A stretch of 64,000 nucleotides of DNA from an uncultured candidatus Porisulfidus sp. Lineage in GTDB: Bacteria; Pseudomonadota; Gammaproteobacteria; Poriferisulfidales; Poriferisulfidaceae. Where the stretch lies: contig OZ220694.1 of the NCBI GenBank assembly GCA_965116525.1, forward strand, positions 952,879-1,016,878. The letters run 5' to 3'. The notes beneath the pieces are model-generated. The model was not told where the DNA came from. It made no database searches and worked only from the letters and a program-made list of their open reading frames with translations. The position numbers and the translations under genes were made by a program. Positions 4,379 through 58,516 of this stretch are shown in pieces; the stretch's first letter is position 1, and each line of letters opens with the position of its first letter.

Positions 4379-5151
4379 GACCGGGCGCTCCGGGCGTACC
4401 AGGCCATAGCCACGCCAGCCAAGGCCAGAGGGATGCAGAGAAGCTGACCCATGGTCAGCCAGCCGAACGCAAGGTAGCCGAGGTGGGCATCTGGCAGGCG
4501 CACGAATTCCACCGCGAAGCGCATAACGGAATAGCCCAGGGCAAACACTGCCGCGACCGCCCCGACAGCCCGGGGCTTCCGGGCGAACCACCAGAGAACC
4601 GCAAACAGGACGATGCCCTCCAGCGCCGCTTCGTACAACTGGCTCGGATGGCGGGGCTCGGGGCCTGCTGCCGGGAAGATCACCCCCCACGGCAGATCGG
4701 TAGGCCGTCCCCAAAGCTCGCCGTTGATGAAGTTTCCGATCCGGCCGAAAAACAGTCCGATTGGCACCATCGGGACGCAGAAATCGACGGTGGCCAGCCA
4801 TCCGACATTCAGTTTTCGTTGCCACAGCCAGATCGCGATCCCCACTCCGATCAGGCCGCCGTGGAAGCTCATCCCGCCTTCCCAGATGCGCAGAATCATC
4901 CAAGGGTCGACGAGCAGATAGTCCGAATGGTAGAACAGGGTGGAACCCAGCCGGCCGCCGATGATGGCGCCGAGGGCTCCGTAGAAAAGCAGGTCGCTTA
5001 CCTGTTCGGGGGTGACCGCCGTATGCACCCGGCGGGCGTGGCGGACGCCAAGCAGCCAGAACCCGGCAAACCCCAGCACGTACATCAGGCCGTACCAGTG
5101 GATATGCACGGGGCCTATCGCAAGGGCGACCGGGTCCCAGTCAAGAAGCAT
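4375..5151 (-). CDS. lgt: prolipoprotein diacylglyceryl transferase
   Basis: 258-aa polytopic membrane protein with [11 protein letters not shown]...GGRLG...[14 protein letters not shown] Lgt signature. Conserved lgt-thyA pair. Confidence 0.92.
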
Positions 5152-5194
5152 GGTGGAAGTTTAACAAAACCCCGCACCGTATAATTTTGGATCT

Positions 5195-7213
5195 ATGCCA
5201 AACCGTCTCGCCGAAGCTTCCAGTCCCTACCTGCGCCAGCATGCGGACAATCCGGTGGACTGGTATCCGTGGGACGAGGAGGCGCTGCGCGAAGCAAACG
5301 AAAGCGGCCGCCCGATCCTGCTGTCAATCGGCTATGCCGCCTGCCACTGGTGCCATGTGATGGCACACGAGTCCTTTGAAGACTCGGCGACTGCAGAGTT
5401 GATGAACCGCCTGTACGTCAACATCAAGGTGGACCGTGAAGAACGTCCGGACCTGGACAAGTTGTACCAAACGGCGCAAATGCTGCTGACCCAGCGCGGC
5501 GGCGGCTGGCCGCTGACCCTGTTCCTCACGCCGGACAAGCGGGTCCCATTTTTCGGCGGCACCTACTTCCCGCCGGAGCCTCGCCACGGGCTGCCGGCGT
5601 TCAGCCAGATACTGGAGCGGGTCGCGGAGTGGTACAGCGAGCATGCTGGAGAACTGGCCCAGCAAAATGAATCGGTATGCGCGGCATTGCGGCAAATCCA
5701 CCAGTCGCCCCAGGCAACCTCTTGGCCGGAAGGACTCGAGGCGGATGTCATCGAGGGTTTGGCGCGATCGTTCGATGCGCAGGACGGAGGATTCGGCGGC
5801 GCCCCGAAATTTGCGCGTCCGACCCAGTTGCAGTGGTTGCAGCAACAGGAAAACCCACAGGCGCAACACATGGCGACGCATACCTTGTCGTGCATGTCCG
5901 AGGGTGGAATCCAGGATCATGTCGGCGGCGGCTTCTACCGGTACTCGGTTGACGCGCACTGGATGATTCCCCACTTCGAGAAGATGCTGTACGACCAGGC
6001 TCTCCTGCTGCCGCTTTACGCGGAGGCCTGGGCGCGCACCGAGTCTTTGCCGTTGCGGATCGCGGCACAGGGCATCGTCTCGTTAGTCACCCGCGAGCTT
6101 CAAGATGAGTCCGGTGGCTTCTACTCCAGCCTGGATGCCGACTCTGAAGGGGAGGAGGGCAAGTTTTACGTGTGGACGCCGGATGAGGTGCAGGCGCTGA
6201 TCCCGGAAGAGCACTATCCGGCATTTGCATCCCGATTCGGGTTGGATCGCCCGGCTAATTTCGAGGGCCTTTGGCACCTGCACGGGTTTCGAACCATGCT
6301 GGAAGCCGCGGCGCACACCAAGCAGCCGATGGAAGAGCTCCAGAGCGTGTTCGACCAGGACCTGCAGCGCCTGTTCGAAGCCCGCTCGGCCCGCATCCGG
6401 CCGGGGCTGGACGACAAGATGCTGACCAGTTGGAACGGCCTGATGATCCGAGGCCTGGTTCTGGCCTCGCGCCTGCTGGACGAGCCGGGCTGGCTCCGCC
6501 ACGCAGAGGCGGCATTCGATTTCGTTCGGGACCGGCTTTGGGATGGCCAGCGACTGCGGGCAAGCTTCAGCCAGGGAACGGCTCACCTGAACGCATATCT
6601 GGACGACTATGCGTTCATGCTGGAGGCGGCGCTTTTGTTGCTTCAGAGCCGCTGGAACAGCGAGGACCTGAAGTTCGCCGAGCAACTGGCCGAAGTAATC
6701 GCCGAACAGTTCGCGGATCCTGAGGGAGGGCTGTTCTTCACGTCGCACGACCATGAGGAACTGCTGGTTCGCCCGCGGCTTCTGGCCGATGATGTCGCAC
6801 CGTCCGGTTGCGCGGTTGCTTGCGAGGGGCTGACCCAGATCGGGCACCTGCTCGCGCGGGGCGATTGGGTGGAATTGGCGGAACGGACTTTGGCAAGCGC
6901 ACAAGGCGCCATCGTGCACGCGCCGCAGGAACACGCCCGGTTCATGGAGGCCCGGCTTGCGGTGGAACAGCCTCCTCCGCAAATTATCCTGCGCGGCAGC
7001 GGGCCGGAATTGGAGCGCTGGCAATCCACGGCGCGACACGGCAGTCTCCGTGCAGACAGCTACGCCATCCCCGAAGAAGCGGAAAATCTCCCGCCGGCAC
7101 TGTCGGACAAGCCGGCACAGGGCGAGGCGGTGGCCTATGTCTGTGTCGGGCCTACTTGCGAAGAGCCGATCCGGTCTTTTGATGTCTTCAGAGAAAGAGT
7201 CCAGGCCCCGTGA
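5195..7213 (+). CDS. thioredoxin-domain protein of the DUF255/YyaL family (N-acylglucosamine-2-epimerase-like C-terminal domain)
   Basis: N-terminal [47 protein letters not shown] is the DUF255 thioredoxin-like motif. 672 aa is typical for the family. Confidence 0.85.
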
Positions 7214-18634: not shown

Positions 18635-19396
18635 ATGTTGCGCCAGGCAATTCTGGTGCTGCCGGTTCTTTTGGTGCTCTCGGCCGGCGGCGTTGCGCAT
18701 GCCGGAGAGAAGGGCTCTTCTTTCCATTGGGCGGGAGCCTACGCAGGCTTTTTTGCGGGTTCCGGACGAGTGGACAACCGGCTGATCGATCCTGCCGGCT
18801 TCGCGAACTGGGGCAATCCCGGCTCGGTGACCCGCCATGAGGATGCTGGCTTCGTCGGGGGTCTGCTGATCGGGAAGAAATTCGATCTTGGCAACATGTC
18901 GGTCCGGATCGAACTTGACGGCACCGTTGGGGATTTGGAGTCGGAAACCAATCAACTCGATCCTGTAGGGTTGGACGAGACGGCGGTGGCGGAGTTCCAG
19001 TGGATTACCACGGCCCGCGTCGGAATAGAGAAATCAATCGGTTCTGCGACGGTGTTCGTTACCGGAGGACTGGCGCTGGCCAGGATCGAAAATTCTGTCA
19101 CTGACATTGACTTCGGGGCAGATCGCCCCCCGGCAGTGGACCCGGACGATTCCTTTCGCGACCGGTCTACGGAAACCGGCTGGGTCATCGGGTTTGGCGC
19201 CGAAGTTCCCCTGACTGGTGTTTGGACGGTGCGGTTCGAGGGGCTCCATCTGGATTTTGGTCGGAGCGGTCACCGCGCGAACCATTCCGGAAACAATTCC
19301 TGCGGATCGGACGGCCCTCGGGAGCCCTGCCCGTACCGGGTCGAAAATGAACTTGATGTTTTTCGTCTGGCGATCACCCACCCGCTCGGGGGGTAG
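18635..19396 (+). CDS. outer-membrane beta-barrel protein (OmpA-N/OmpW-like family), with signal peptide
   Basis: Signal peptide MLRQAILVLPVLLVLSAGGVAHA, then alternating amphipathic beta-strand pattern with aromatic girdle residues. No family-specific motif recognised. Confidence 0.5.
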   Translation: MLRQAILVLPVLLVLSAGGVAHAGEKGSSFHWAGAYAGFFAGSGRVDNRLIDPAGFANWGNPGSVTRHEDAGFVGGLLIGKKFDLGNMSVRIELDGTVGDLESETNQLDPVGLDETAVAEFQWITTARVGIEKSIGSATVFVTGGLALARIENSVTDIDFGADRPPAVDPDDSFRDRSTETGWVIGFGAEVPLTGVWTVRFEGLHLDFGRSGHRANHSGNNSCGSDGPREPCPYRVENELDVFRLAITHPLGG

Positions 19397-19463
19397 CGAG
19401 GGTATCCGAATATACTAGTGTTCCGAGCATGCGTGCAAAGTTAAGCACGATTTTTTGGCAATC

Positions 19464-20360
19464 ATGATGCCTGATTCCTACCCTATTATCACGGTGAAGC
19501 CGGAATGGGTTTCGGGGCCCGAGGAAATGGGAAGTAAGACGAAATTCTGGTACAGCAATCTGGAAAGGCAGGAAGCAAATTGGCTTTTCAAATACCCGAA
19601 GCCAGGCACAGGAGAGCATTGGGCGGAGAAAATTTCTGAGCAAGTTGCTCATATCCTCCAGATTACGCACGCAAAGGTCGAACTTGCGGAATTTCAGGAT
19701 GAGCATGGTTCAGTAACGAAATCCTTTACTCGTGGGGAGAAAGACCTATGCCATGGGAATGAAGTATTGAGATGGATTGTTCCTGGCTACGATCCTGAGA
19801 AAAAATTCCATCAGTCGGCGCATACCTTGGAGAATATCTTTCAAGCAATGGAGAGAATTTTTATCTCTACGGAAGCAGCAAGATTTGCAAAAGCACGTAT
19901 TTCGGAATATATCGTGTTAGACGCGTTGGTTGGGAACACAGATCGACACCATGAAAACTGGGGCATTCTGCGCGAGCGAGCGGGCGATGGTTGGAGGGGT
20001 TTTGTGGCACCTTCATTCGACCATGCATCTTCATTAGGCCGGGAGCTTTTGGATGAACGTCGCGATAGGTTTTTGGCAGAGAGACTAGTCGGAGGATATG
20101 TGGAAAAAGGCCATGGCGGGATTTACTGGTCAGAAGACGAGAGGCGTGCTCCTAGCCCTTTGGAGTTGGTGCGTCGTGCGGCTCAACGCCACCCGGAGTT
20201 TTTCCAGGGAGCACTAAAGAAAACACAGAGATTGGATGAAAGTACCATGAAAGATTTGGTGAATCGCGTGCCTGATTCTTGGATGACCCCTTCGGCTCGC
20301 GAATTCGCTATCGAATTGATTCGCTATAATTTTAACCAGATGAGCAATCTCCTTTCATGA
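19464..20360 (+). CDS. HipA-like Ser/Thr kinase, C-terminal kinase-core only (HipT-like)
   Basis: Catalytic-loop motif VGNTDRHHENWG matches HipA_C GNTDDHxKNxS. Putative Gly-rich loop VSGPEEMGSKTKF. ~300 aa, lacking the HipA N-domains. The ORF-track start at 19455 is a TTG; the first ATG is at 19464. Confidence 0.7.
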   Translation: MMPDSYPIITVKPEWVSGPEEMGSKTKFWYSNLERQEANWLFKYPKPGTGEHWAEKISEQVAHILQITHAKVELAEFQDEHGSVTKSFTRGEKDLCHGNEVLRWIVPGYDPEKKFHQSAHTLENIFQAMERIFISTEAARFAKARISEYIVLDALVGNTDRHHENWGILRERAGDGWRGFVAPSFDHASSLGRELLDERRDRFLAERLVGGYVEKGHGGIYWSEDERRAPSPLELVRRAAQRHPEFFQGALKKTQRLDESTMKDLVNRVPDSWMTPSAREFAIELIRYNFNQMSNLLS

Positions 20361-21097
20361 ACACCAAAACCCTATTCCTGGCTTGGCAGGACAAGAACCG
20401 GCGCCAATGGTTTCCGGTTGGCAGGTTGGATGCGGATGTCAGTGCGTCGTTCTACCGGTTCCGCTATGTCGCGGGCGCACAACGGGCGCAAAAGGAAGCG
20501 AAATTTCCACTACTGCTCGAATTTCCGGAAGTACGCGAGGACTACAAGTCTGCGGAGTTGTTCGCACTTTTCAAGAATCGAATTATTGCGTCAGGACGCC
20601 CGGACCGCATGGAGTATCTGCAGAATCTTGACCTCAAGGAGGATGCGAACCCCATCGAAATCCTTTCGGCAAGCGGTGGACGTCGAGCCACAGACTTCTA
20701 CGAAGTCTTTCCAAAGATCGTAAAACAATCTGACGGGAGTTTTACCTGTCGTTTTTTCTTGCATGGCTGGCGACATGTGAGTCCGCATGCCCAAGAGCGG
20801 ATGAGGAGTTTGGAGCCAGATGAAGAATTGTACGTGACGCTAGAGTTAACTAATCCAGCGACAGGCTTGGCGGTTCAGATTCAGACGCAAGACTATGAAA
20901 TGATTGGTTGGGCTCCACGCTATCTTTTAAGCGACTTGGTGGCTGCGATGGCAGATTTCCGAAATTATTCCGCACGAGTTGTTCGTGTGAATCTGCAACC
21001 GGCACCGTCGAGACAACGAGTTTTAGTCGAAATGAGCGGCCGTTGGGTTGATCATGAGCCTATGAGCGGCGAAGATTTTGTTCCGCTTGCTGCATAA
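20357..21097 (+). CDS. HipA-N-terminal-like (HipS-like) domain fused to a C-terminal HIRAN domain
   Basis: The N-terminal half follows the HipA_N 'couple_hipA' pattern (L.L.W...PVGRL.....FYRF.Y...PLLLEFP...ELFALFKNRIIASG, EILSASGGRRATDF). The C-terminal half (LEPDEELYVTLELTNPATGLAVQIQTQDYEMIGWAPRYLLSDLVAAMADFRNYSARVVRVN) matches the HIRAN pattern (L.REP.NP.D..A..V......IGY.PR.LA.....SARVVRV). The start overlaps the kinase stop (ATGA). Confidence 0.5.
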   Translation: MNTKTLFLAWQDKNRRQWFPVGRLDADVSASFYRFRYVAGAQRAQKEAKFPLLLEFPEVREDYKSAELFALFKNRIIASGRPDRMEYLQNLDLKEDANPIEILSASGGRRATDFYEVFPKIVKQSDGSFTCRFFLHGWRHVSPHAQERMRSLEPDEELYVTLELTNPATGLAVQIQTQDYEMIGWAPRYLLSDLVAAMADFRNYSARVVRVNLQPAPSRQRVLVEMSGRWVDHEPMSGEDFVPLAA

Positions 21098-21253
21098 TCA
21101 ACCTAAAGACTTGAAATGTTATTTCGTACATTTCGCACTGAGGTTTTAATCGCTTCACTAATTTTGATAGTGCCATCCTGCACGCTGCCCTTCAGAATAT
21201 TTTGTAATCAGTTTTCGGGCACAGCCTAATTCTGTGCGGCTATCGTTGTCAAC

Positions 21254-23755
21254 ATGAATGACTACTACAAGATACTCCGTGTTTTTATTGCCTCTCCAAG
21301 TGATTTGAAGGAGGAACGAAAGGTAGTTCACGAAGAAATCGAGGAATTTAATCGATCTTGGGCAAGCGAATTCGGATATCGGCTTGAACCAGTTGGGTGG
21401 GAGGAGACCATTTCTGGCTGTGGAAGACCGCAACAACTCATAAACCAAGGCGTGGACCAATGTCATCTTTTCATTGGTATGGTTTGGAGGAGGTGGGGCA
21501 CACCGCCGGACAACGATGGAAACTATTCTTCTGGGTTTGAAGAAGAGTTTGATCGAATGATGAAGCGACGCGAGGAAAACGATCATCTTGAAGTTTCTCT
21601 ATTTCTCAAAAAAATTTCTAGTGAATGCAAGGAAGATCCTGACGAACAACTCAAACGAGTTCTAGAGTTTCGAGAAAAAATGAACGAAGAAAAAAAGATT
21701 CTCTATCAAGAGTTTGAAGAAGCACAAGACATGGCGATATTGGCGCGAGATAAAATCAGAACTTTTGTGAAAAAAGTCAAAGTGGCAGATTCGACTGATT
21801 CCAATCAAGCCAAAGAGAGAAGCCCTGACCTAGAACAACAGAATGAGACAAAGGAAGAACGTGATTCTTCTCTTATGCCTGAAAGCATTATTTTTCTTCG
21901 AGATTTGGTTGAGCGTGTTGGTCAGGAGGGTTCGATGGAAAGCCTTAATGCACCTGACATCGCCCGATTCCGCCTGTTGGCAAATTCGGTTTCAAAACCA
22001 GGCAACCATAAGTTAAGCCTAGGAGTTCACGATGCCAATATTCTTTACTTGCATCATATCAATGGCGGCCTGAAACCCGACAAACGAGAAATTATTTTCT
22101 TAACTAGATTGGGCTTGCATAAGCTTAAGAGCGAGAACGTGCCATTCTGGTGTTGGTATTCTGCAATGTTGGCCTCTGGCCCTGGTGCACTTTTGGCCTC
22201 GTCAATGCATGGTGTCGACGACAATGAGAAGATTGGGGCGATCAGAGTATTAGGCGCATTGGAACTTGATTGGCCAACGAACAAGAACTTGCCCCGGGGA
22301 AAAGTTCTAACTTTCTGGTTTTCTAAAGACTCGTCGGCGAAAGTAAAATCAGCCGCTTTAGGCTACCTTGCAACAATAGGCACGACAGAAGACTACTCTG
22401 TTGCCGAGGAAGAATACGGCAGGGAAGATCACCAGACTTCTCGTAAGGCACTTGAGTGCATGATTGCAATTCTCCTTAGAGCCGGATTAGAAGAAGAAGC
22501 CCAACAATTAGTTCTTGAATCACAATTTGAATCGTTGGACGCAAGCATATTGCAGGCAGTTTTAGAAGGCTTTGATCGCATGAAGCTAGCACTGTTGTTG
22601 ATGGGGGTGGAACACCCTATCTCCCAAGTGAGATTGCATGCATTAAATATTTTGCTTGAACGCAATGAGCTAAGCCAAGATTTAGCAGAACAATTGTGCA
22701 AAGACCGCGAAATTTCAATACGCGACTTGGCAATCAAGGCGCTTTTACAATTAGGTAAACCACTAAGTCAAGAGGAAATTAAGAGAATTTTAACGCCACC
22801 TAAAGCGCGGGTTCAGCGTAGCTTATTTAAAGCATTTGCTCCGGATGTGTCAGATAAACAGGCTGAAATGCTTCTTGCCCGCCATGAATGGGAAAGCTTG
22901 ATGAGGCTTTCTGAATCTGAGCTTACCGCGCAAGTTGAAGATGGCTTAATGTATGAGGAAGTAGCGTATTTTGCACGTGCAGAAAAATATTTTTCTCAGT
23001 ATGCAGGGGAATTGAGACGTGATGTTGATGACTCTTTTGGAGCATATTGGGAAGAGCGGCTTCGACGGACAGAGATTGCTTTTCGTGACCACCCTGCTGA
23101 ACTTGAGGAGATGGTAAAAAAGGACAAGGAGCTAGAAAGCTTTCACCGGAAAGAACTTATAAGACAAGGATTAGATGTCCTATGTAGAGTGGGCGAAAGC
23201 GAGGACCTGCATAGAATTAGGGAACACCTCAATGAAGGTGACCTGGAAGTATCTAGGTTGGATGTGAAGTACCTAGCGAGACATGGCAAATGGAAGGACA
23301 TTCCACTACTGACACAGGCGACTGTTCCATTTGAGGGGATTGCCGAAGGTTTGACCACTTCAATGGCGCGTGAAAAAATTCAGACAGAGATTGCAGAGGC
23401 TGCTCTTAACATGAGTTATGGGCACAATCTATCAAAACTGTTTTCCCTGGATATGCCTGTGGACATCTTAGTGAAAATGATTGATTTGTGCCCCGAATCG
23501 AAATTCTCGGAAATTCCGGATGACGTTCTTCTGAAACTCTTTGATAATGAATTGGCGGACTTTCGCAAGGCCGCGTCCATTAAAGCAGTTCAGACTTTTT
23601 CAAGAGAGCGAATCAAATCAATTCTTCACGCATATGCTACTAGTGACCAGCCCCACTATTACAATGTCATTCACTGGTTGGATGTGGGCGTGTCTATGTC
23701 TCGCAATGAGGCAATGAAGGTGGTGGCTACAGCTTCGGGGGACTTTCCCTCTTAA
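21254..23755 (+). CDS. 833-aa protein: N-terminal DUF4062-like (TIR-like) domain plus long HEAT/ARM-type alpha-helical repeat region
   Basis: The N-terminal segment YKILRVFIASPSDLKEERKVVHEEIEEFN fits the DUF4062 hallmark (FISS..DL.eER). The remaining ~700 aa are Leu/Glu/Lys-rich repeats with HEAT-like units (VRLHALNILLE, IRDLAIKALLQLG). No P-loop or nuclease motif seen. Lowest-GC part of the window. Confidence 0.55.
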   Translation: MNDYYKILRVFIASPSDLKEERKVVHEEIEEFNRSWASEFGYRLEPVGWEETISGCGRPQQLINQGVDQCHLFIGMVWRRWGTPPDNDGNYSSGFEEEFDRMMKRREENDHLEVSLFLKKISSECKEDPDEQLKRVLEFREKMNEEKKILYQEFEEAQDMAILARDKIRTFVKKVKVADSTDSNQAKERSPDLEQQNETKEERDSSLMPESIIFLRDLVERVGQEGSMESLNAPDIARFRLLANSVSKPGNHKLSLGVHDANILYLHHINGGLKPDKREIIFLTRLGLHKLKSENVPFWCWYSAMLASGPGALLASSMHGVDDNEKIGAIRVLGALELDWPTNKNLPRGKVLTFWFSKDSSAKVKSAALGYLATIGTTEDYSVAEEEYGREDHQTSRKALECMIAILLRAGLEEEAQQLVLESQFESLDASILQAVLEGFDRMKLALLLMGVEHPISQVRLHALNILLERNELSQDLAEQLCKDREISIRDLAIKALLQLGKPLSQEEIKRILTPPKARVQRSLFKAFAPDVSDKQAEMLLARHEWESLMRLSESELTAQVEDGLMYEEVAYFARAEKYFSQYAGELRRDVDDSFGAYWEERLRRTEIAFRDHPAELEEMVKKDKELESFHRKELIRQGLDVLCRVGESEDLHRIREHLNEGDLEVSRLDVKYLARHGKWKDIPLLTQATVPFEGIAEGLTTSMAREKIQTEIAEAALNMSYGHNLSKLFSLDMPVDILVKMIDLCPESKFSEIPDDVLLKLFDNELADFRKAASIKAVQTFSRERIKSILHAYATSDQPHYYNVIHWLDVGVSMSRNEAMKVVATASGDFPS

Positions 23756-23870
23756 GAATCCTGTCAGTGACCAAGAGAGCCAGCAAGTTACGAACTGCCA
23801 CATTCCGAAAATCAAGAAGAAACTTGCCATAATAGTATTACTCCGCCAGTGAGAGCATCGCTGGCCCGAT

Positions 23871-52785: not shown

Positions 52786-53097
52786 GGTCGGAACAGAAAC
52801 CGGGTGCGCATCATAAGAGAACTGCCGCCAATGTCAAATGCCGCCCAACTTTCGGTAGCCCCGAAGTGTGGAATCCGGTGAAGAAAATGTTGCCGAGGGC
52901 AATGTTTAAGCGGTTGCCGTGCCATGGATTTTCGGGAGGTTTAAGAAAGCCATCGCCGGTGTGGCGAGAATAAAAATCTTCTCTCTAAAGGGGTATTTGG
53001 GGATATTGATAACTGGTACAATGGGGGTAGGTCGATTGTCGCTTAGGCAAGAATGCTCGACCGGCGATCGGCCGGTAATTTTGACAGGAGGTATACC

Positions 53098-53619
53098 ATG
53101 TCAAGTCTCGTAGCATTATCTGTAAGTATTGGTGTTTTAGGCGGTGTCGCAACGGCACTGAGTTTAGGCCCGTTATCAGGAATCGTCTACATTTGGGTAG
53201 CTTTCATTGCCTGGGCCTGTTACTTCGCAATCGGGGGAGACCAAAAGGCGTTGCAAAACACAATTGTTTGCGGCATTCTCGGTGCAGTGATCGCTTGGGT
53301 GGCGCTGCTCGTTATTCTGACGATCCCACTGGGCGAAGCGCTTACCGTGCCAATCTGGGCGGGAGTCGTGGTGGCCGTAAGTGTTTTAGTCATGTGCCTG
53401 TTGGCTCACGTCGAATACTTTTCCTCGATCCCGGCAAGCGTTCTGGGCTATGCAAGTGTAGCTGGCTATGCGTTGCAGACCGAGGGCGCGTTCTCCATGG
53501 AAGCGCTGGGTTCTGCTGGAACTTCAAATGCATTGATTGTCGTCGCGATTTCTATAGTCGTTGGCGCGGTCTTTGGCATGATTTCCGGCAAAGTCGGCGG
53601 AATGCTTTCATCGGAGTAA
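53098..53619 (+). CDS. hypothetical polytopic membrane protein
   Basis: ~173 aa, 5-6 hydrophobic helices. Start placed at MSSLVALSV. Followed by an intrinsic terminator. Confidence 0.5.
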   Translation: MSSLVALSVSIGVLGGVATALSLGPLSGIVYIWVAFIAWACYFAIGGDQKALQNTIVCGILGAVIAWVALLVILTIPLGEALTVPIWAGVVVAVSVLVMCLLAHVEYFSSIPASVLGYASVAGYALQTEGAFSMEALGSAGTSNALIVVAISIVVGAVFGMISGKVGGMLSSE

Positions 53620-53651
53620 TATAGACAAACTATAAAACTTAGCCTCACTAA

Positions 53652-53680
53652 ACGCCCAGCTCCGGCTGGGCGTTTTCTTG
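53652..53680 (+). terminator. intrinsic terminator (ACGCCCAGC-TCCG-GCTGGGCGT + TTTCTTG)
   Basis: 9-bp GC-rich stem with tetraloop followed by a U-rich tract, 33 nt after the membrane-protein stop. Confidence 0.7.
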
Positions 53681-53762
53681 CCTTCACGCTGGGGTAGGAA
53701 TACCGGGGAAAGCCTGCAACCTATTGAAAAACTAGTTTTTTATTGGAATTTCCTGTCTTCGG

Positions 53763-54467
53763 TCAATATTTCAGCCAACCGTCCAAGATGGAGAACAGAG
53801 CCTGCCGCGCTGGCATGGCACACTCCACAGTGCGTGCCCTGATTTCTGCGGCATCTTGAACGAACTTCTCGGGAACCAGTTCATCCTTGAAGTGCTCGGT
53901 CATCACGCCTACTTCTTCTTCTCCCATCTCCAAGTGGAACTGAAGTCCCAGCACTCTTCCTTCATACAGAAATCCCTGGTTGGCGCAGGCCTCACTTCCC
54001 GCGATGCGCATCGCACCCGGAGGTGTCGCGAACGTGTCGCCATGCCAGTGCAAGACATCCATCTGACGGTTCAGGCCCTGCCCTAGTTGGGTGTCCAGGA
54101 ATGCGTCCTCCAAGAGGATCGGAAACCAGCCGATTTCCGTGCATGGATTCTTCCGGACTTCCGCTCCCAAAGCTTTGGCGATCATCTGGGCACCGAGACA
54201 GATGCCGAGGACATGCTTTCCTTGATCGACCGCTTCTCGGATGAAGCGTAACTCGTGATCAAGCCAGGGGTGCTGACCTCCGTCGCACACGCCCATCGGT
54301 CCTCCCATTGCCACCAGTACGTCGTAATCGTCATGGGAAATAGACAAGGGTTGCTTTTGGTACTGCCTATGCCGGATCAGTTGGCCGCCGAGATCCCGAA
54401 TATACGCAGAAATCGTACCAACCCCCTCTTGCGGCACATGTTCGATGGAAAAAAAGCGGAAAGTCAT
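53763..54467 (-). CDS. class I glutamine amidotransferase-like protein
   Basis: Nucleophile elbow GICLGAQ with downstream His/Glu region. GMP-synthase-type GATase1 fold, 234 aa. Confidence 0.75.
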   Translation of the reverse strand: MTFRFFSIEHVPQEGVGTISAYIRDLGGQLIRHRQYQKQPLSISHDDYDVLVAMGGPMGVCDGGQHPWLDHELRFIREAVDQGKHVLGICLGAQMIAKALGAEVRKNPCTEIGWFPILLEDAFLDTQLGQGLNRQMDVLHWHGDTFATPPGAMRIAGSEACANQGFLYEGRVLGLQFHLEMGEEEVGVMTEHFKDELVPEKFVQDAAEIRARTVECAMPARQALFSILDGWLKY

Positions 54468-54955
54468 GAGTTGGGTGGGCCAATTGCGGAATTTTCGGTT
54501 TCGGATTGCTGTTGCTGCCAGTATTTAAACACTATCGGGGGAATTCCAAGCGATTCCGCGTCTTCGGCAGTCATGGTCTGCAGGCGTTGTAGGGTGCCAG
54601 CGACAAAGCCCCCGCGGGCTGGAGCCGGCAAAAGGGTCCGGATGCGTTCCGTGAGAAGGAGGGATAATGTCTGCCCGCATGCGGCATCGCGAATTGCTTC
54701 GCGCAGCAGGGCCTGCTGCAGCGCATCGAGCGTCTCGTCCTCGACTCTCGGGTCCACCTCCTGCGGGGTTGCGATCCGGTATCGCCTTCCTTTATTGGTG
54801 CCGGTGACTTCGACCTGCCCTTCATCGCACAATGCGAGCAACCAGCGGCGTAAGGTCCGGTCATTAACCTGGAATCCCTCACGAAGTTCGGATATCAGAG
54901 CAGGATGTTCTAATTTTCTTAGATAAGATAGCAATTTACGGTGCTCAAGCCGCAT
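54464..54955 (-). CDS. winged-helix DNA-binding protein (putative transcriptional regulator)
   Basis: N-terminal LLSYLRKLEHPALISELREGFQVNDRTLRRWLLALCDEGQVEV...RYRI is wHTH-like. Co-directional with and 131 nt downstream of fic. Overlaps the GATase start. Confidence 0.5.
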   Translation of the reverse strand: MRLEHRKLLSYLRKLEHPALISELREGFQVNDRTLRRWLLALCDEGQVEVTGTNKGRRYRIATPQEVDPRVEDETLDALQQALLREAIRDAACGQTLSLLLTERIRTLLPAPARGGFVAGTLQRLQTMTAEDAESLGIPPIVFKYWQQQQSETENSAIGPPNS

Positions 54956-54962
54956 ATGTATT

Positions 54963-55014
54963 GTCCGATATATGTCCGATAATAGGATAATTATAAACTA
55001 TATTATATCGGACA
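54963..55014. promoter_or_regulatory. operator-like repeats upstream of the wHTH gene: TGTCCGATA x2 direct (11-bp phasing) plus a perfect inverted copy TATCGGACA
   Basis: ATGTCCGATA...TATCGGACAT are exact reverse complements separated by 24 bp of AT-rich DNA. Lies in the 131-nt gap between the fic stop and the wHTH start. Confidence 0.5.
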
Positions 55015-55086
55015 TTTCTTTAAGATAATTTTGGGTTGCTTGAGATTCCCGTAAATGCTAGGGACGCAAAAATTTTCCGCGCGATT

Positions 55087-56436
55087 TCAGCTCGATAAAT
55101 CGCTGATTTTTTTGCTCAGGTTTTCAGCCGGAAAAAAAACTGTCGCTCTGCCTCTCCGGTTCCCCTGAACAAGTAGTTCGCGCCCTTCTAAATCAAGTAG
55201 ATCTGCCCGCGCTGTCGCGTAAGCGACCCCATGGCTTGTTTGATGGGACCTAAAGGTATAGCCATCACTATTCCCTCGAATCGCATGGCTGAGTAGCGCT
55301 AACTGCCTATGGTTGAATTGCCTGACACCTTTTAGTCGTTGCTCCAGGTCTTTCGCCTGTTCAATTTTTTTGTTCAGATATTGCTCTAAATCGGCAATAG
55401 ATGAAATGATGACCTTTAATTGATGCGCAATAAAGTATGTTAAATCGTTCTCATCGGTTTCCGAATATAAATAAGCGTAAGCATACCGTGCAGGAGCCTT
55501 CTTTATATTCCTTGATATAGAGATACATTCGAACAGCCAATAATTCTGCTTGAGCATCGACCAGTAGAACAATGCGCGCGCCAACCTTCCATTTCCGTCT
55601 TCGAACGGATGATCGAAACCGATCCAAAAATGCAAAAGAATAGATTTGATAATGGGATGAATGAAAGTTGGGGCCGTGTGTTCGTCGTTTGCGAATTCAC
55701 ATAACTCCTTGATCCGGCCGGGGAGTTGATCTGCAGGCGGAGGGGTGTGCAATTTTCTGTTTCTGGCATCAAATACCCCCACCCTTACATCATCACTCGT
55801 TTGCAGCTTTCCTGCCGCCTCAGCATCTTCCAGTGTTTGGTCGGTGACAATCCTGTGCAAGTCTAAGATAAGTTCGGGAGTCAGTTTTTCGCTCTTTATC
55901 TCCCTGACAACATTCATGGCCGCATAATTGTTAAGGATCATTCGCTCATGCTGGTTTTTGGGCCTGCGTCCGGATCTCAGCATATTTGACGCAATCTTTC
56001 GGGACGTCGACGCGCCTTCTAGTTGGCTTGATGTGATTGCTTCCTCGATAAGAGAGCTGACAATATAGCGATTCCTTGTCTCTGGATTTGTAACTTGCTC
56101 CGATATGGCAACCTGGCCTGTGGCTTTACTGTCAATTTCGTGCAGCATCTCTAGTACTGTATCGGGCATGCAAAAACTAAAGTGCGTCCCCCTCGCGTCT
56201 TTTAGGGGAATTCTCTTTCTCAATTGAGCACGTGCCATTTTTATTCCCAACCACCAAAGATCGTGGTTGAGGCCTTCAGGAGGTTTTCTATATTTCAATT
56301 CGGCCCAGTGTAAGTATTTTCCTTTGATTGTGGGCAGGGTTGTGACGTCAGGCTGTAAAAACAGCTGGCTCAAATCCTTAGGATCAGCTCTCCCTACGAT
56401 GTCTGATATTGAGGGGGCGTTTTGCGGCCTTCTCAT
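55087..56436 (-). CDS. Fic/DOC family protein (putative AMPylase), intermediate GC
   Basis: Canonical Fic motif HPFEDGNGRLARAL. N-terminal helical extension and C-terminal wHTH-like tail. GC lower than flanking genes. Confidence 0.85.
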   Translation of the reverse strand: MRRPQNAPSISDIVGRADPKDLSQLFLQPDVTTLPTIKGKYLHWAELKYRKPPEGLNHDLWWLGIKMARAQLRKRIPLKDARGTHFSFCMPDTVLEMLHEIDSKATGQVAISEQVTNPETRNRYIVSSLIEEAITSSQLEGASTSRKIASNMLRSGRRPKNQHERMILNNYAAMNVVREIKSEKLTPELILDLHRIVTDQTLEDAEAAGKLQTSDDVRVGVFDARNRKLHTPPPADQLPGRIKELCEFANDEHTAPTFIHPIIKSILLHFWIGFDHPFEDGNGRLARALFYWSMLKQNYWLFECISISRNIKKAPARYAYAYLYSETDENDLTYFIAHQLKVIISSIADLEQYLNKKIEQAKDLEQRLKGVRQFNHRQLALLSHAIRGNSDGYTFRSHQTSHGVAYATARADLLDLEGRELLVQGNRRGRATVFFPAENLSKKISDLSS

Positions 56437-56476
56437 GGCATCTCCGCAACTTTTTCTGGCGACTCAATCATAGCAT

Positions 56477-56573
56477 AACTATCAATATTTCTTCAATTGA
56501 TAGTTATTGACACTTAACTATCAGTTACTATCAGAAATCGGAAAATTGATAGTCATTGATACTTATCTATCAG
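56477..56573. repeat. array of seven 9-bp TTGATAGTN / NACTATCAG-type motifs (alternating orientations) in the fic-mnmG intergenic region
   Basis: AACTATCAA (56477), TTGATAGTT (56497), AACTATCAG (56516), TACTATCAG (56527), TTGATAGTC (56546), TTGATACTT (56556), ATCTATCAG (56565). These form at least two palindromic TTGATAG-N10/14-CTATCA units. Confidence 0.7.
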
Positions 56574-56683
56574 TTTTTCTCGGCAATACTGGGTAATTCA
56601 AGCAAATTCTCTAGTTGGTTTCCTATAGCAAACTAAAATCGGTACCGTTTCCCTTTGGGATTAGCAGTATATTAAGCGGCGCA

Positions 56684-58516
56684 ATGACGGGCGTAATTCG
56701 TACTTGGGATGTTCTGGTCATCGGCGGCGGCCACGCCGGCGTGGAGGCGGCGCTTTCGGCCGCGCGCACCGGCGCACACACCCTGCTCCTGACCCACCGT
56801 TTCGTTGCGATCGGCCAGATGAGTTGTAATCCGGCGATTGGCGGTATCGGCAAAAGCCATCTAGTGCGTGAAATCGATGCACTCGGTGGGGTCATGGCGC
56901 AGGCTGCGGACCGTGCCGGGATCCATGTCCGAGTGCTGAACAGAAGAAAGGGACCGGCGGTGCATGCTACCCGTGCCCAGACCGATCGCAAGCTCTATCG
57001 CGAAGCCATCCAGAATTCCGTCACCGAGGCCCGAAACCTGGAGGTCCAGTCCGTTGCCGTCGGCGACTTGATCGTGCAGGACGGCAAGGTGCGCGGCATT
57101 CTCACCGAGGAAGGGGACCGCATCGAAGCGCCTGCGGTTGTATTGGCCACCGGCACATTTCTGGACGGCGCCATTCACATCGGGGCGGAACAGACTCAAG
57201 GCGGTCGAGCGGGAGACCCCCCGTCCCTGCTCCTTGCGCATCGGTTGCGTGAACTGCTGCCGGATGTCGGGCGCCTCAAGACCGGAACCCCTCCCCGCCT
57301 GGATGGGCGGAGCATCGACTGGTCGAAGACCTCCGTCCAGCCTGGAGAGATGCCGCCGCCGCCGCTGTCCCGGCTCAGTCCGCCAGACGTGCATCCGCGG
57401 CAGGTGAATTGCCACCTGACGCGTACGACGGAGGCCACTCACGATTTGATTCGCGCGCATTTGCACCAGTCGCCGATGCACACCGGGGCCATCGACAGTC
57501 GCGGGCCGCGTTATTGCCCTTCGGTCGAAGACAAAGTGGTCCGTTTCGCCGAACGCCCGTCGCATCAGGTGTTCATCGAACCTGAAGGACTGGACACCCA
57601 CGTGATCTATCCCAACGGAATTTCCACCAGCCTGCCGGCTGAGGTGCAGGAACAGTTTGTCCGGACTATTCCAGGTTTTGAGGAAGCACAGTTGACGCGC
57701 TACGGCTACGCCATCGAATATGACTTCTTCGATCCGCGGCAATTGCGCCCGACACTGCAATGCAAGGCTTTGCCTGGCTTGTATTTGGCCGGACAGATCA
57801 ATGGCACGACCGGTTACGAGGAGGCAGCCGCGCAAGGGCTGCTCGCAGGTTACAACGCAGCGGCTCAAAGCCAAGACCGAGAAGCCTGGTGGCCGCGCCG
57901 CGATCAAGCCTATATCGGCGTTCTGGTCGACGACCTGGTCACCCGGGGCGTGGATGAACCCTACCGCATGTTCACCAGTCGCGCCGAATACCGGCTGACC
58001 TTGCGGGAAGACAACGCCGACTTGCGTTTGACCGAAGCCGGGCGTGAACTGGGCTTGGTCTGTGACGCACGTTGGGAACTCTTTTGCGAACGACGCGACG
58101 CGTTGGAGCAGGAACTGGAACGACTGCACACCACCCGGCTGGGCGAGGACAGTCTGGCCGATATTCTGCGCCGCCCTGAAACAGATTACGCGAAGGCCGT
58201 CTCGATGTCTCCGGCGTACGAACCGGCCAGCCTCGATATTGGCCGTCAGGCGGAAATCGAACTTCGCTACGAAGGCTACATCCGCCGCCATAAGCACGAA
58301 ATCGAACGTCTGAAACAAGACGAAACCCGCCGCTTGCCGGAGGGAATCAACTACCGGTCGATCACCGCCCTGTCTCATGAAGCACGAGAAAAACTGAGCC
58401 ATTGTCGGCCTGCAACACTGGGGCAGGCCGCCCGCATTCCCGGAGTGACGCCTGCCGCCGTCGCGATCCTGAAGGTTCATTTGAAGGCTGACGGCATCCG
58501 GCAACAGGGCGTCTGA
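56684..58516 (+). CDS. mnmG: tRNA uridine 5-carboxymethylaminomethyl modification enzyme MnmG (GidA)
   Basis: [31 protein letters not shown]...[29 protein letters not shown]-binding N-terminus. The true ATG is at 56684. Confidence 0.95.

Follow-up and report, generated by a model that had tools for sequence, protein, structure and literature searches.

The 64,000-nt stretch analysed here (the window; contig OZ220694.1, positions 952,879 to 1,016,878, assembly GCA_965116525.1 of an uncultured candidatus Porisulfidus sp.) carries at 19464-21097 on the plus strand two overlapping open reading frames (ORFs) which, judged by architecture and profile matches, almost certainly form an intact hipIN module, a pair that is listed in PADLOC-DB as phage-defence candidate PDC-M03. 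We base this assignment on full-length matches of the adjacent gene products to the profiles PDC-M03A and PDC-M03B, and on an architecture that is the one by which Gerdes, Baerentsen & Brodersen defined hipIN (mBio 2021, PMC8262856): a HipI kinase followed by HipN, a protein made up of a HipS-like domain plus HIRAN. The initial annotation of this DNA knew of no described HipBST or HipBA variant with a DNA-end sensor, which was wrong, as the kinase with its HipS-HIRAN partner, the reversed gene order, the missing HipB and the hypothesis of a DNA-end sensor were all published in 2021. The architecture is therefore real but not new; what is new here is an asymmetry in the decay of the two genes, together with the selection acting on hipN genes that have no kinase beside them.

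In the defining study 14 hipIN modules were placed in a tree of 1,239 kinases, and the related hipJS modules, with HipS only, as well as the fused HipL were also described; the authors put forward the idea that HIRAN senses the ends of phage DNA and that this activates the kinase and brings about abortive infection (PMC8262856). A HipA/HIRAN pair next to diDNase genes was noted in a 2025 paper in Nucleic Acids Research that cites both the hipIN and the PDC-M03 sources. The parts of the locus in the window are the following, with residues of the kinase numbered for the 297-residue protein and the evidence given in brackets.

19397..19463 (+): spacer upstream of hipI, no ORF for HipB or another helix-turn-helix (HTH) protein (ORF list and sequence inspection)
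19464..20360 (+): hipI, short Ser/Thr core kinase of the HipA superfamily without the HipA N-subdomain 1, putative toxin (Pfam, PADLOC, AlphaFold2, Foldseek, hhalign)
19521..19550 (+): presumed Gly-rich loop region EEMGSKTKFW, residues 19-28 (motif position; outside the hhalign coverage)
19581..19598 (+): WLFKYP motif with the predicted ATP-binding lysine K42 (invariance and hhalign to HipA)
19932..19964 (+): predicted catalytic loop GNTDRHHENWG, residues 156-166, with the catalytic Asp D159 and N164 (invariance and alignment to HipA and CtkA)
20007..20033 (+): predicted Mg-binding motif APSFDHASS, residues 181-189, with D185 (invariance and alignment to HipA and CtkA)
20357..20360 (+): ATGA overlap of the hipI stop and the hipN start, translational coupling (read directly in the sequence)
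20357..20743 (+): N-terminal HipS-like domain of hipN, residues 1-129, putative kinase-neutralising module
20744..21097 (+): C-terminal HIRAN domain of hipN, residues 130-246 and the stop codon, putative DNA-end binding or sensor module

The kinase ORF is listed as 19455..20360 (+), with 301 amino acids (aa) from a TTG codon. Alignments of homologues begin at residue 5 of this ORF and ATG codons are found at 19464 and 19467, so that one of these two is the real start of hipI, giving a protein of 298 or 297 aa, which lies inside the family range of 279-321 aa and lacks N-subdomain 1; its translation carries LVGNTDRHHENWGIL. The second ORF, hipN (20357..21097 (+), 246 aa), starts with the ATG in ...tcATGAac... 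and overlaps the TGA stop codon of hipI by 4 nt, as had been read before. The translation of hipN contains the peptides quoted earlier for the partner protein, LEPDEELYVTLELTNP, IGWAPRYLLSDLVAAM and SARVVRVN. Upstream of hipI an outer-membrane beta-barrel gene (Pfam OMP_b-brl) ends at 19396, and the remaining spacer of 67-70 nt, depending on the start codon, holds nothing except a hairpin and a T-run at 19432-19449 and therefore leaves no room for a hipB gene. The pair is thus bicistronic with the kinase first and neither HipB nor another HTH protein encoded ahead of it, which bears out the gene order given in the initial annotation. On the 3' side hipN is followed by a gap of 156 nt and then by an unrelated gene for an 833-aa protein. 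The hairpin in the spacer is terminator-like (CGTGC, 8 nt, GCACG, followed by the T-run) and lies only about 15 nt ahead of the hipI start codon; the spacer yielded no sigma-70-like promoter, and transcription of hipIN may depend either on read-through from the upstream gene or on a leader element.

Among loci with enough flanking sequence a kinase gene with the partner behind it is seen in 41 of 78 loci from genomes and 49 of 56 from metagenomes, and the same 4-nt overlap is present in 32 of the 41 and 27 of the 49 loci in which both genes are intact. As the arrangement recurs across both types of loci, the pairing of the two genes is not a chance neighbourhood.

The kinase matches PDC-M03A with an E-value of 7.5e-84 (residues 9-297, profile positions 2-299 of 302), while Pfam returns HipA_C as the only domain (6.3e-14). 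Its AlphaFold2 model, built on an alignment of 50 homologues, reaches a predicted local distance difference test score (pLDDT) of 85 and, when searched with Foldseek, retrieves CtkA as best match (3e-12, template modelling score 0.72-0.80), followed by HipT of L. pneumophila (2.7e-8), HipA of Shewanella and E. coli (3e-8) and HipT of E. coli (8e-7); in HipT and HipA the fold match spans the core kinase. The predicted likeness to HipT, which had been suggested by the short length of about 300 aa, is therefore seen in the fold as well. CtkA is also the closest solved sequence to the HipI family profile (3.5e-10). For a comparison between profiles we took HipA sequences from Table S1 of the 2021 paper (PMC8262856); hhalign aligned HipI with HipA from about residue 181 of the latter onwards (E 1.4e-5) and paired WLFKYP with HILKPP, GNTDRHHENWG with AGTDAHAKNYS and APSFDHASS with APLYDLGSA. 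The counterparts in CtkA are GNFDRHNGNWG for the catalytic loop and APIFDCGS for the Mg-binding motif.

Conservation was examined in two sets, 25 homologues derived from the loci and 50 from databases. In both of them K42 of WLFKYP, the residues D159, R160, H161, E163, N164 and W165 of the catalytic loop, and P182, S183, D185, H186 and A187 of the Mg-binding motif are invariant. The catalytic-loop motif reported at the outset is thus present, and its Asp, the loss of which would have pointed to a dead kinase, is in place. E19, M21, G22, K24 and K26 are likewise invariant (alignment A2) and residue 23 is S, T or G; S23 is a possible autophosphorylation site. We take EEMGSKTKFW to be the Gly-rich loop because of where it lies relative to the other motifs, and in this element the locus agrees with hipIN by position only, the ATP-binding Lys and the catalytic-loop and Mg-binding motifs being present as in the family. 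HipI thus looks catalytically competent, and it lacks the N-subdomain 1 of HipA.

HipN is covered almost completely by PDC-M03B (E 2.1e-78, profile positions 1-242 of 245). Its two halves had been described as a HipA N-subdomain-like region of about 130 aa and a HIRAN-like C-terminus, and profile similarity bears out the second but not the first of these: Pfam HIRAN matches residues 129-223 slightly above the cut-off (1.2e-5), whereas Couple_hipA, the HipA N-terminal domain, stays below threshold (0.14) and hhalign assigns the N-domain a probability of 5% for the HipS/HipA_N type. The same holds for the family, as 47 of 68 diverse members match HIRAN and nine Couple_hipA. A sequence search of the PDB with HipN gave no match, and a profile search reached HIRAN entries only; the relation to HipS had to come from structure prediction. 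Structure prediction, which had been proposed for both proteins and which returned a kinase fold for HipI, resolves HipN into two domains with HipS-like and HIRAN folds (AlphaFold2, 68-member alignment, pLDDT 96, predicted template modelling score 0.92). The downstream gene thus appears to combine a HipS-like N-domain with HIRAN at the C-terminus in one protein, as in hipIN and as the initial annotation had read it.

For the HIRAN domain we compared the residues by which HLTF contacts DNA ends. In a hidden Markov model (HMM) alignment the counterparts of R71 and N91-P92 are present in HipN as R139, N166 and P167. Asp94 of HLTF, which contacts the 3'-OH within the NPxD motif, aligns with T169 of HipN (window 20861-20863), a placement obtained from the HMM alignment and not by superposition. 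At this position Thr is present in 109 of 121 close homologues, but 40 of the 68 diverse members of the family have Asp. A second peculiarity of this domain was noticed in comparison with the sister locus L081, a relative with about 95.7% nucleotide identity in dapF, xerC and ubiE. The HIRAN half of hipN (window 20748-21097, L081 9282-9631) is only about 73% identical, compared with 95-98% for hipI and the HipS-like half (97% for the latter), which places a sharp mosaic boundary inside hipN. The HIRAN half differs by 34 synonymous and 35 non-synonymous codon changes, the HipS-like half by nine and two. We considered diversifying selection in an arms race as the cause and rejected it, since synonymous changes are equally raised and HIRAN is not the more variable half across the family (mean pairwise identity 0.707, versus 0.692 for the HipS half). 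The divergence from L081 looks like a recombinational swap.

The fate of the two genes was followed by anchoring on each in turn, on intact hipN genes in genome loci with room upstream and on intact kinase genes in metagenome loci with room downstream. Of 77 intact hipN genes, 41 are accompanied by an intact kinase, 24 by kinase remnants and 12 by no kinase at all; most of the remnants are pieces of the C-terminal end directly adjoining hipN, and they are broken off at many different points. Conversely, an intact hipN lies immediately downstream of 49 of the 50 intact kinase genes (Fisher p = 4.9e-9 for 49/50 versus 41/77). In the sole exception (L131, 1312-1623) the partner covers residues 4-105 of HipN only, which is the HipS-like part without HIRAN and recalls the layout that Gerdes et al. 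described as hipJS; this case is consistent with the HipS-like domain being the neutralising part. A kinase that is almost never kept without HipN, and a HipN that often outlives its kinase, is what one expects if the two are toxin and antitoxin.

The hipN genes without an intact kinase (36 of 77, about 47%) are nevertheless maintained. The median pairwise ratio of non-synonymous to synonymous substitutions (dN/dS) is 0.159 between such orphans and 0.174 between paired genes, values which partly include the history before kinase loss. Where two hipN genes share the same kinase remnant they diverged after the loss, and for one such pair (L039 and L050) dS is 0.148 and dN/dS 0.17. Upstream neighbours of the kinase-less hipN genes are heterogeneous and include NYN, ThsB-TIR, DUF7002, cupin, enolase-like and helicase-like proteins. 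Some of these hipN genes directly follow genes of a conflict type, namely for an NYN protein (whose gene stops 1 nt short of hipN), a TIR protein like ThsB or a DUF7002 protein (L034 5373-5999, L056 5365-5982, L013 5296-5967); L065 has an ORF (5103-5792, minus strand) that is NYN-like by its N-terminal sequence only and lies on the opposite strand to hipN. The idea that such neighbours serve as alternative effectors swapped in for the kinase was dropped, as no consistent partner was found, and we treat these genes as orphans.

The HipN family is large, comprising 2671 clusters at 90% identity and 1259 representatives at 50% identity (E ≤ 1e-3), nearly all of them two-domain proteins of about 245-260 aa. 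The 80 closest hipN loci from genomes (L001-L080) share 62-71% identity and stem from metagenome-assembled genomes of at least ten phyla, with Latescibacterota, Binatia, Acidobacteriota, Nitrospirales, Dehalococcoidia, Longimicrobiales, Spirochaetia, Alpha- and Gammaproteobacteria among the lineages represented. Such identities across so many phyla imply horizontal transfer. Many of the names in these records hint at symbionts of marine sponges (Palauibacter irciniicola, Entotheonella, RHO and COS bins), and the overall distribution suggests a wide horizontal spread of hipN within one habitat.

The tract that holds the pair has a low G+C content (0.50-0.53 versus about 0.62), and no convincing direct repeats were found to flank it. 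L081 carries hipI (96% aa identity) and hipN (85%) in the same slot, between the outer-membrane protein gene and a VWA operon, and these two are all that it has between the conserved flanks. In the window this slot additionally holds a strain-specific insertion of 2.7 kb (21099-23825, absent from L081) with the 833-aa gene mentioned above (21254-23755 (+)), whose product bears a DUF4062 domain at the N-terminus (2.1e-10) as well as HEAT repeats, and matches with its N-terminus the PADLOC candidate PDC-S60 (8e-27); at 0.43-0.47 the G+C content of the insertion is the lowest of the window. This gene was rejected as a third component of hipIN because it is missing from L081 and from all 160 related loci, and hipIN is accordingly a two-gene system beside which an independent insertion, probably a defence-type gene of its own, has been parked.

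Taken together we consider it probable that hipIN is a two-gene, toxin-antitoxin-like pair, in which a kinase toxin is held by HipN and triggered by DNA ends for abortive-infection defence. HipI and HipN would be made in step by way of the ATGA coupling; by analogy with HipS, which places its Trp65 next to the Gly-rich loop and so neutralises HipT (PMC10627512), the HipS-like domain would dock at the position of the N-subdomain 1 of HipA and keep HipI inactive, while the HIRAN domain would bind nucleic acid in place of HipB, which is absent. HIRAN would most likely sense free 3' ends of DNA or single-stranded DNA (ssDNA) arising from phage replication or DNA damage, and this would lead to release or activation of the kinase; free HipI could then phosphorylate an essential translation factor, by analogy with HipA and HipT for instance an aminoacyl-tRNA synthetase, and arrest the growth of the infected cell. 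Both folds, the conservation of the catalytic motifs, the coupling of the genes, the family membership and the toxin/antitoxin-type asymmetry of decay support this proposal, and we also count for it the defence setting, namely the low-GC tract, the strain-specific candidate defence gene alongside, the spread across phyla and the precedent of HipAD (DS-6), a different HipA-family kinase system that has been validated as a phage defence. The toxicity and the target of the kinase, its neutralisation by the HipS-like domain, the binding of DNA and the trigger are steps that we infer.

Several points weigh against this proposal. HipL unites kinase, HipS-like domain and HIRAN in one chain, and the HipS-like domain can therefore not be a simple constitutive inhibitor. 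Sequence similarity of the HipN N-domain to HipS and HipA_N is weak, and its assignment is drawn from the predicted structure; DNA 3'-end binding, in turn, may be altered in the Thr subclade of HipN. The two locus samples compared for the decay asymmetry stem from different collections. The purifying selection on orphan hipN (dN/dS about 0.16) implies some function independent of a kinase in cis, and the literature searched yielded no experiments on members of hipIN or PDC-M03.

Selection after kinase decay, the Thr in place of Asp in HIRAN and the exchange of HIRAN between close strains lead to a different reading, which we regard as possible though unlikely. HipN would here be a free-standing sensor or immunity protein that neutralises HipI kinases brought in by mobile elements or recognises a ligand other than a DNA 3'-OH, and the kinase would be a replaceable effector.

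HipN might alternatively be an obligatory subunit instead of an antitoxin, with the HipS-like domain completing the kinase and HIRAN recruiting it to DNA ends, where the holoenzyme would phosphorylate DNA-bound host or phage proteins. An equivalent N-subdomain belongs to HipA in its active form, on which the dimer of HipS and HipT can be superposed (PMC10627512); in HipL the kinase, the HipS-like domain and HIRAN are naturally fused, and hipI and hipN are tightly coupled in translation at a ratio of 1:1. A split kinase of this type should, however, be harmless alone and sometimes be found alone, yet 49 of 50 intact kinases keep HipN; moreover, HipN often occurs without a kinase, and free-standing HipS has been shown experimentally to be an antitoxin (PMC10627512). 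We therefore hold this explanation to be doubtful.

It also seems improbable to us that HIRAN replaces HipB as an autoregulator at the promoter of the module, which would make hipIN an ordinary addiction or persistence pair without DNA-end sensing. No HipB or HTH gene is present at the locus, HipB serves only as the transcriptional regulator in HipBST (PMC10627512), and type II antitoxins usually contain a DNA-binding domain, all of which would fit. Characterised HIRAN domains, on the other hand, show no sequence specificity in binding to 3' ends or ssDNA (PMC8262856), the spacer of 67-70 nt offers a terminator-like hairpin but no operator-like repeats, and HIRAN is kept in the single-chain HipL family.

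More improbable still is a HipN with a main function of its own, in DNA-end protection or repair or in trans-immunity to HipI kinases that arrive on mobile elements, to which the kinase would be an often-lost accessory. The 36 of 77 intact hipN genes that lack an intact kinase, under purifying selection equal to that on paired genes (0.159 versus 0.174), speak for such a function, but both genes are intact and coupled in the window, and retention of an antitoxin after loss of its toxin is also expected under the toxin-antitoxin model, as anti-addiction. The degraded kinases in about half of the related loci might suggest that the pair has no function any more and is a decaying or inactive relic; this is very unlikely, because both ORFs are full-length with all checked invariant family residues intact and the two genes are kept in the same place in L081 (kinase 96% identical in aa), whose housekeeping genes are about 95.7% identical in nucleotides. 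The toxin-antitoxin-like pair remains the explanation we favour, and the comparative results yield concrete hypotheses concerning a kinase that is almost never found without HipN, an orphan HipN under selection and a predicted 3'-end contact with Thr in this subclade where most of the family has Asp. The interest that remains beyond the published work lies in the HIRAN sensor idea, the decay asymmetry and the orphan HipN.

Two further regions of the window deserve mention. A second tract that diverges from L081 (18648-19547, about 73-80% nucleotide identity with flanks at about 96%) takes in the outer-membrane beta-barrel gene and the spacer as well as ~80 nt at the start of hipI; the outer-membrane proteins are only 73% identical, and the one in the window is possibly a surface protein that varies, or a receptor for phages, adjoining the defence pair. 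At 55087-56436 on the minus strand a 449-aa Fic-domain protein is encoded, which matches the PADLOC SoFic model (9.4e-39) and lies in a second low-GC island (~53000-57000, G+C 0.45-0.55) in the company of a DUF1097 protein, a class-I glutamine amidotransferase-like protein and a 163-aa ORF.

Among systems that have been characterised, HipBA of E. coli K-12 consists of HipA, a kinase of about 440 aa that contains N-subdomain 1 in its own chain, and of an HTH protein HipB, encoded upstream, which neutralises it; with a kinase of 297 aa, a separately encoded N-subdomain 1 and no HipB the pair in the window is not of this type. HipBST (E. coli O127, L. pneumophila; PDB 7AB3, 7VKB, 8EZR) shares with it the split of HipA into a core kinase and a protein like N-subdomain 1, and the folds match. 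HipBST is, however, defined as tricistronic hipB-hipS-hipT, in which an HTH protein HipB and a HipS of one domain are encoded upstream of the kinase, whereas here the kinase comes first, no HipB or other HTH gene is present and the partner has an additional HIRAN domain, which sets the pair apart from HipBST. HipL is composed of the same three modules, core kinase, HipS-like domain and HIRAN, but is a single polypeptide from a monocistronic gene; the two overlapping ORFs, with the stop codon inside ATGA, exclude our pair from that family.

By both sequence and structure HipI is closer to CtkA than to HipT. CtkA of Helicobacter pylori (JHP0940; PDB 3AKJ, 3AKK, 3AKL) has the closest solved structure and differs in being described as a secreted proinflammatory kinase. 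That the nearest solved relative, by profile and by fold, is this 'cell-translocating kinase' and not HipA or HipT suggests that CtkA belongs near the HipI-type short kinases. HipAD, or DS-6 (DefensePredictor, Science 2026, PMC13092281), is a validated anti-phage system that needs kinase activity and, like hipIN, combines a HipA-family kinase with a partner other than HipB; the partner there is made up of DUF3037 and DUF1829, and the kinase belongs to another subfamily. In CapK-CapS (EMBO J 2026, PMC13373217) a bacterial kinase is directly activated by ssDNA and tied to immune pathways, but the analogy is functional only, as the folds are unrelated (an anti-sigma-factor-type kinase and a STAS protein) and the system is a transcriptional regulator and not a toxin. 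The pair resembles hipIN itself in every respect tested, with a short kinase, a downstream partner with HipS-like and HIRAN domains and no HipB, and no structural difference was seen; what distinguishes this copy from the wider hipIN family is that its subclade, mostly from uncultured, apparently sponge-associated bacteria, carries Thr at the position equivalent to Asp94 of HLTF.

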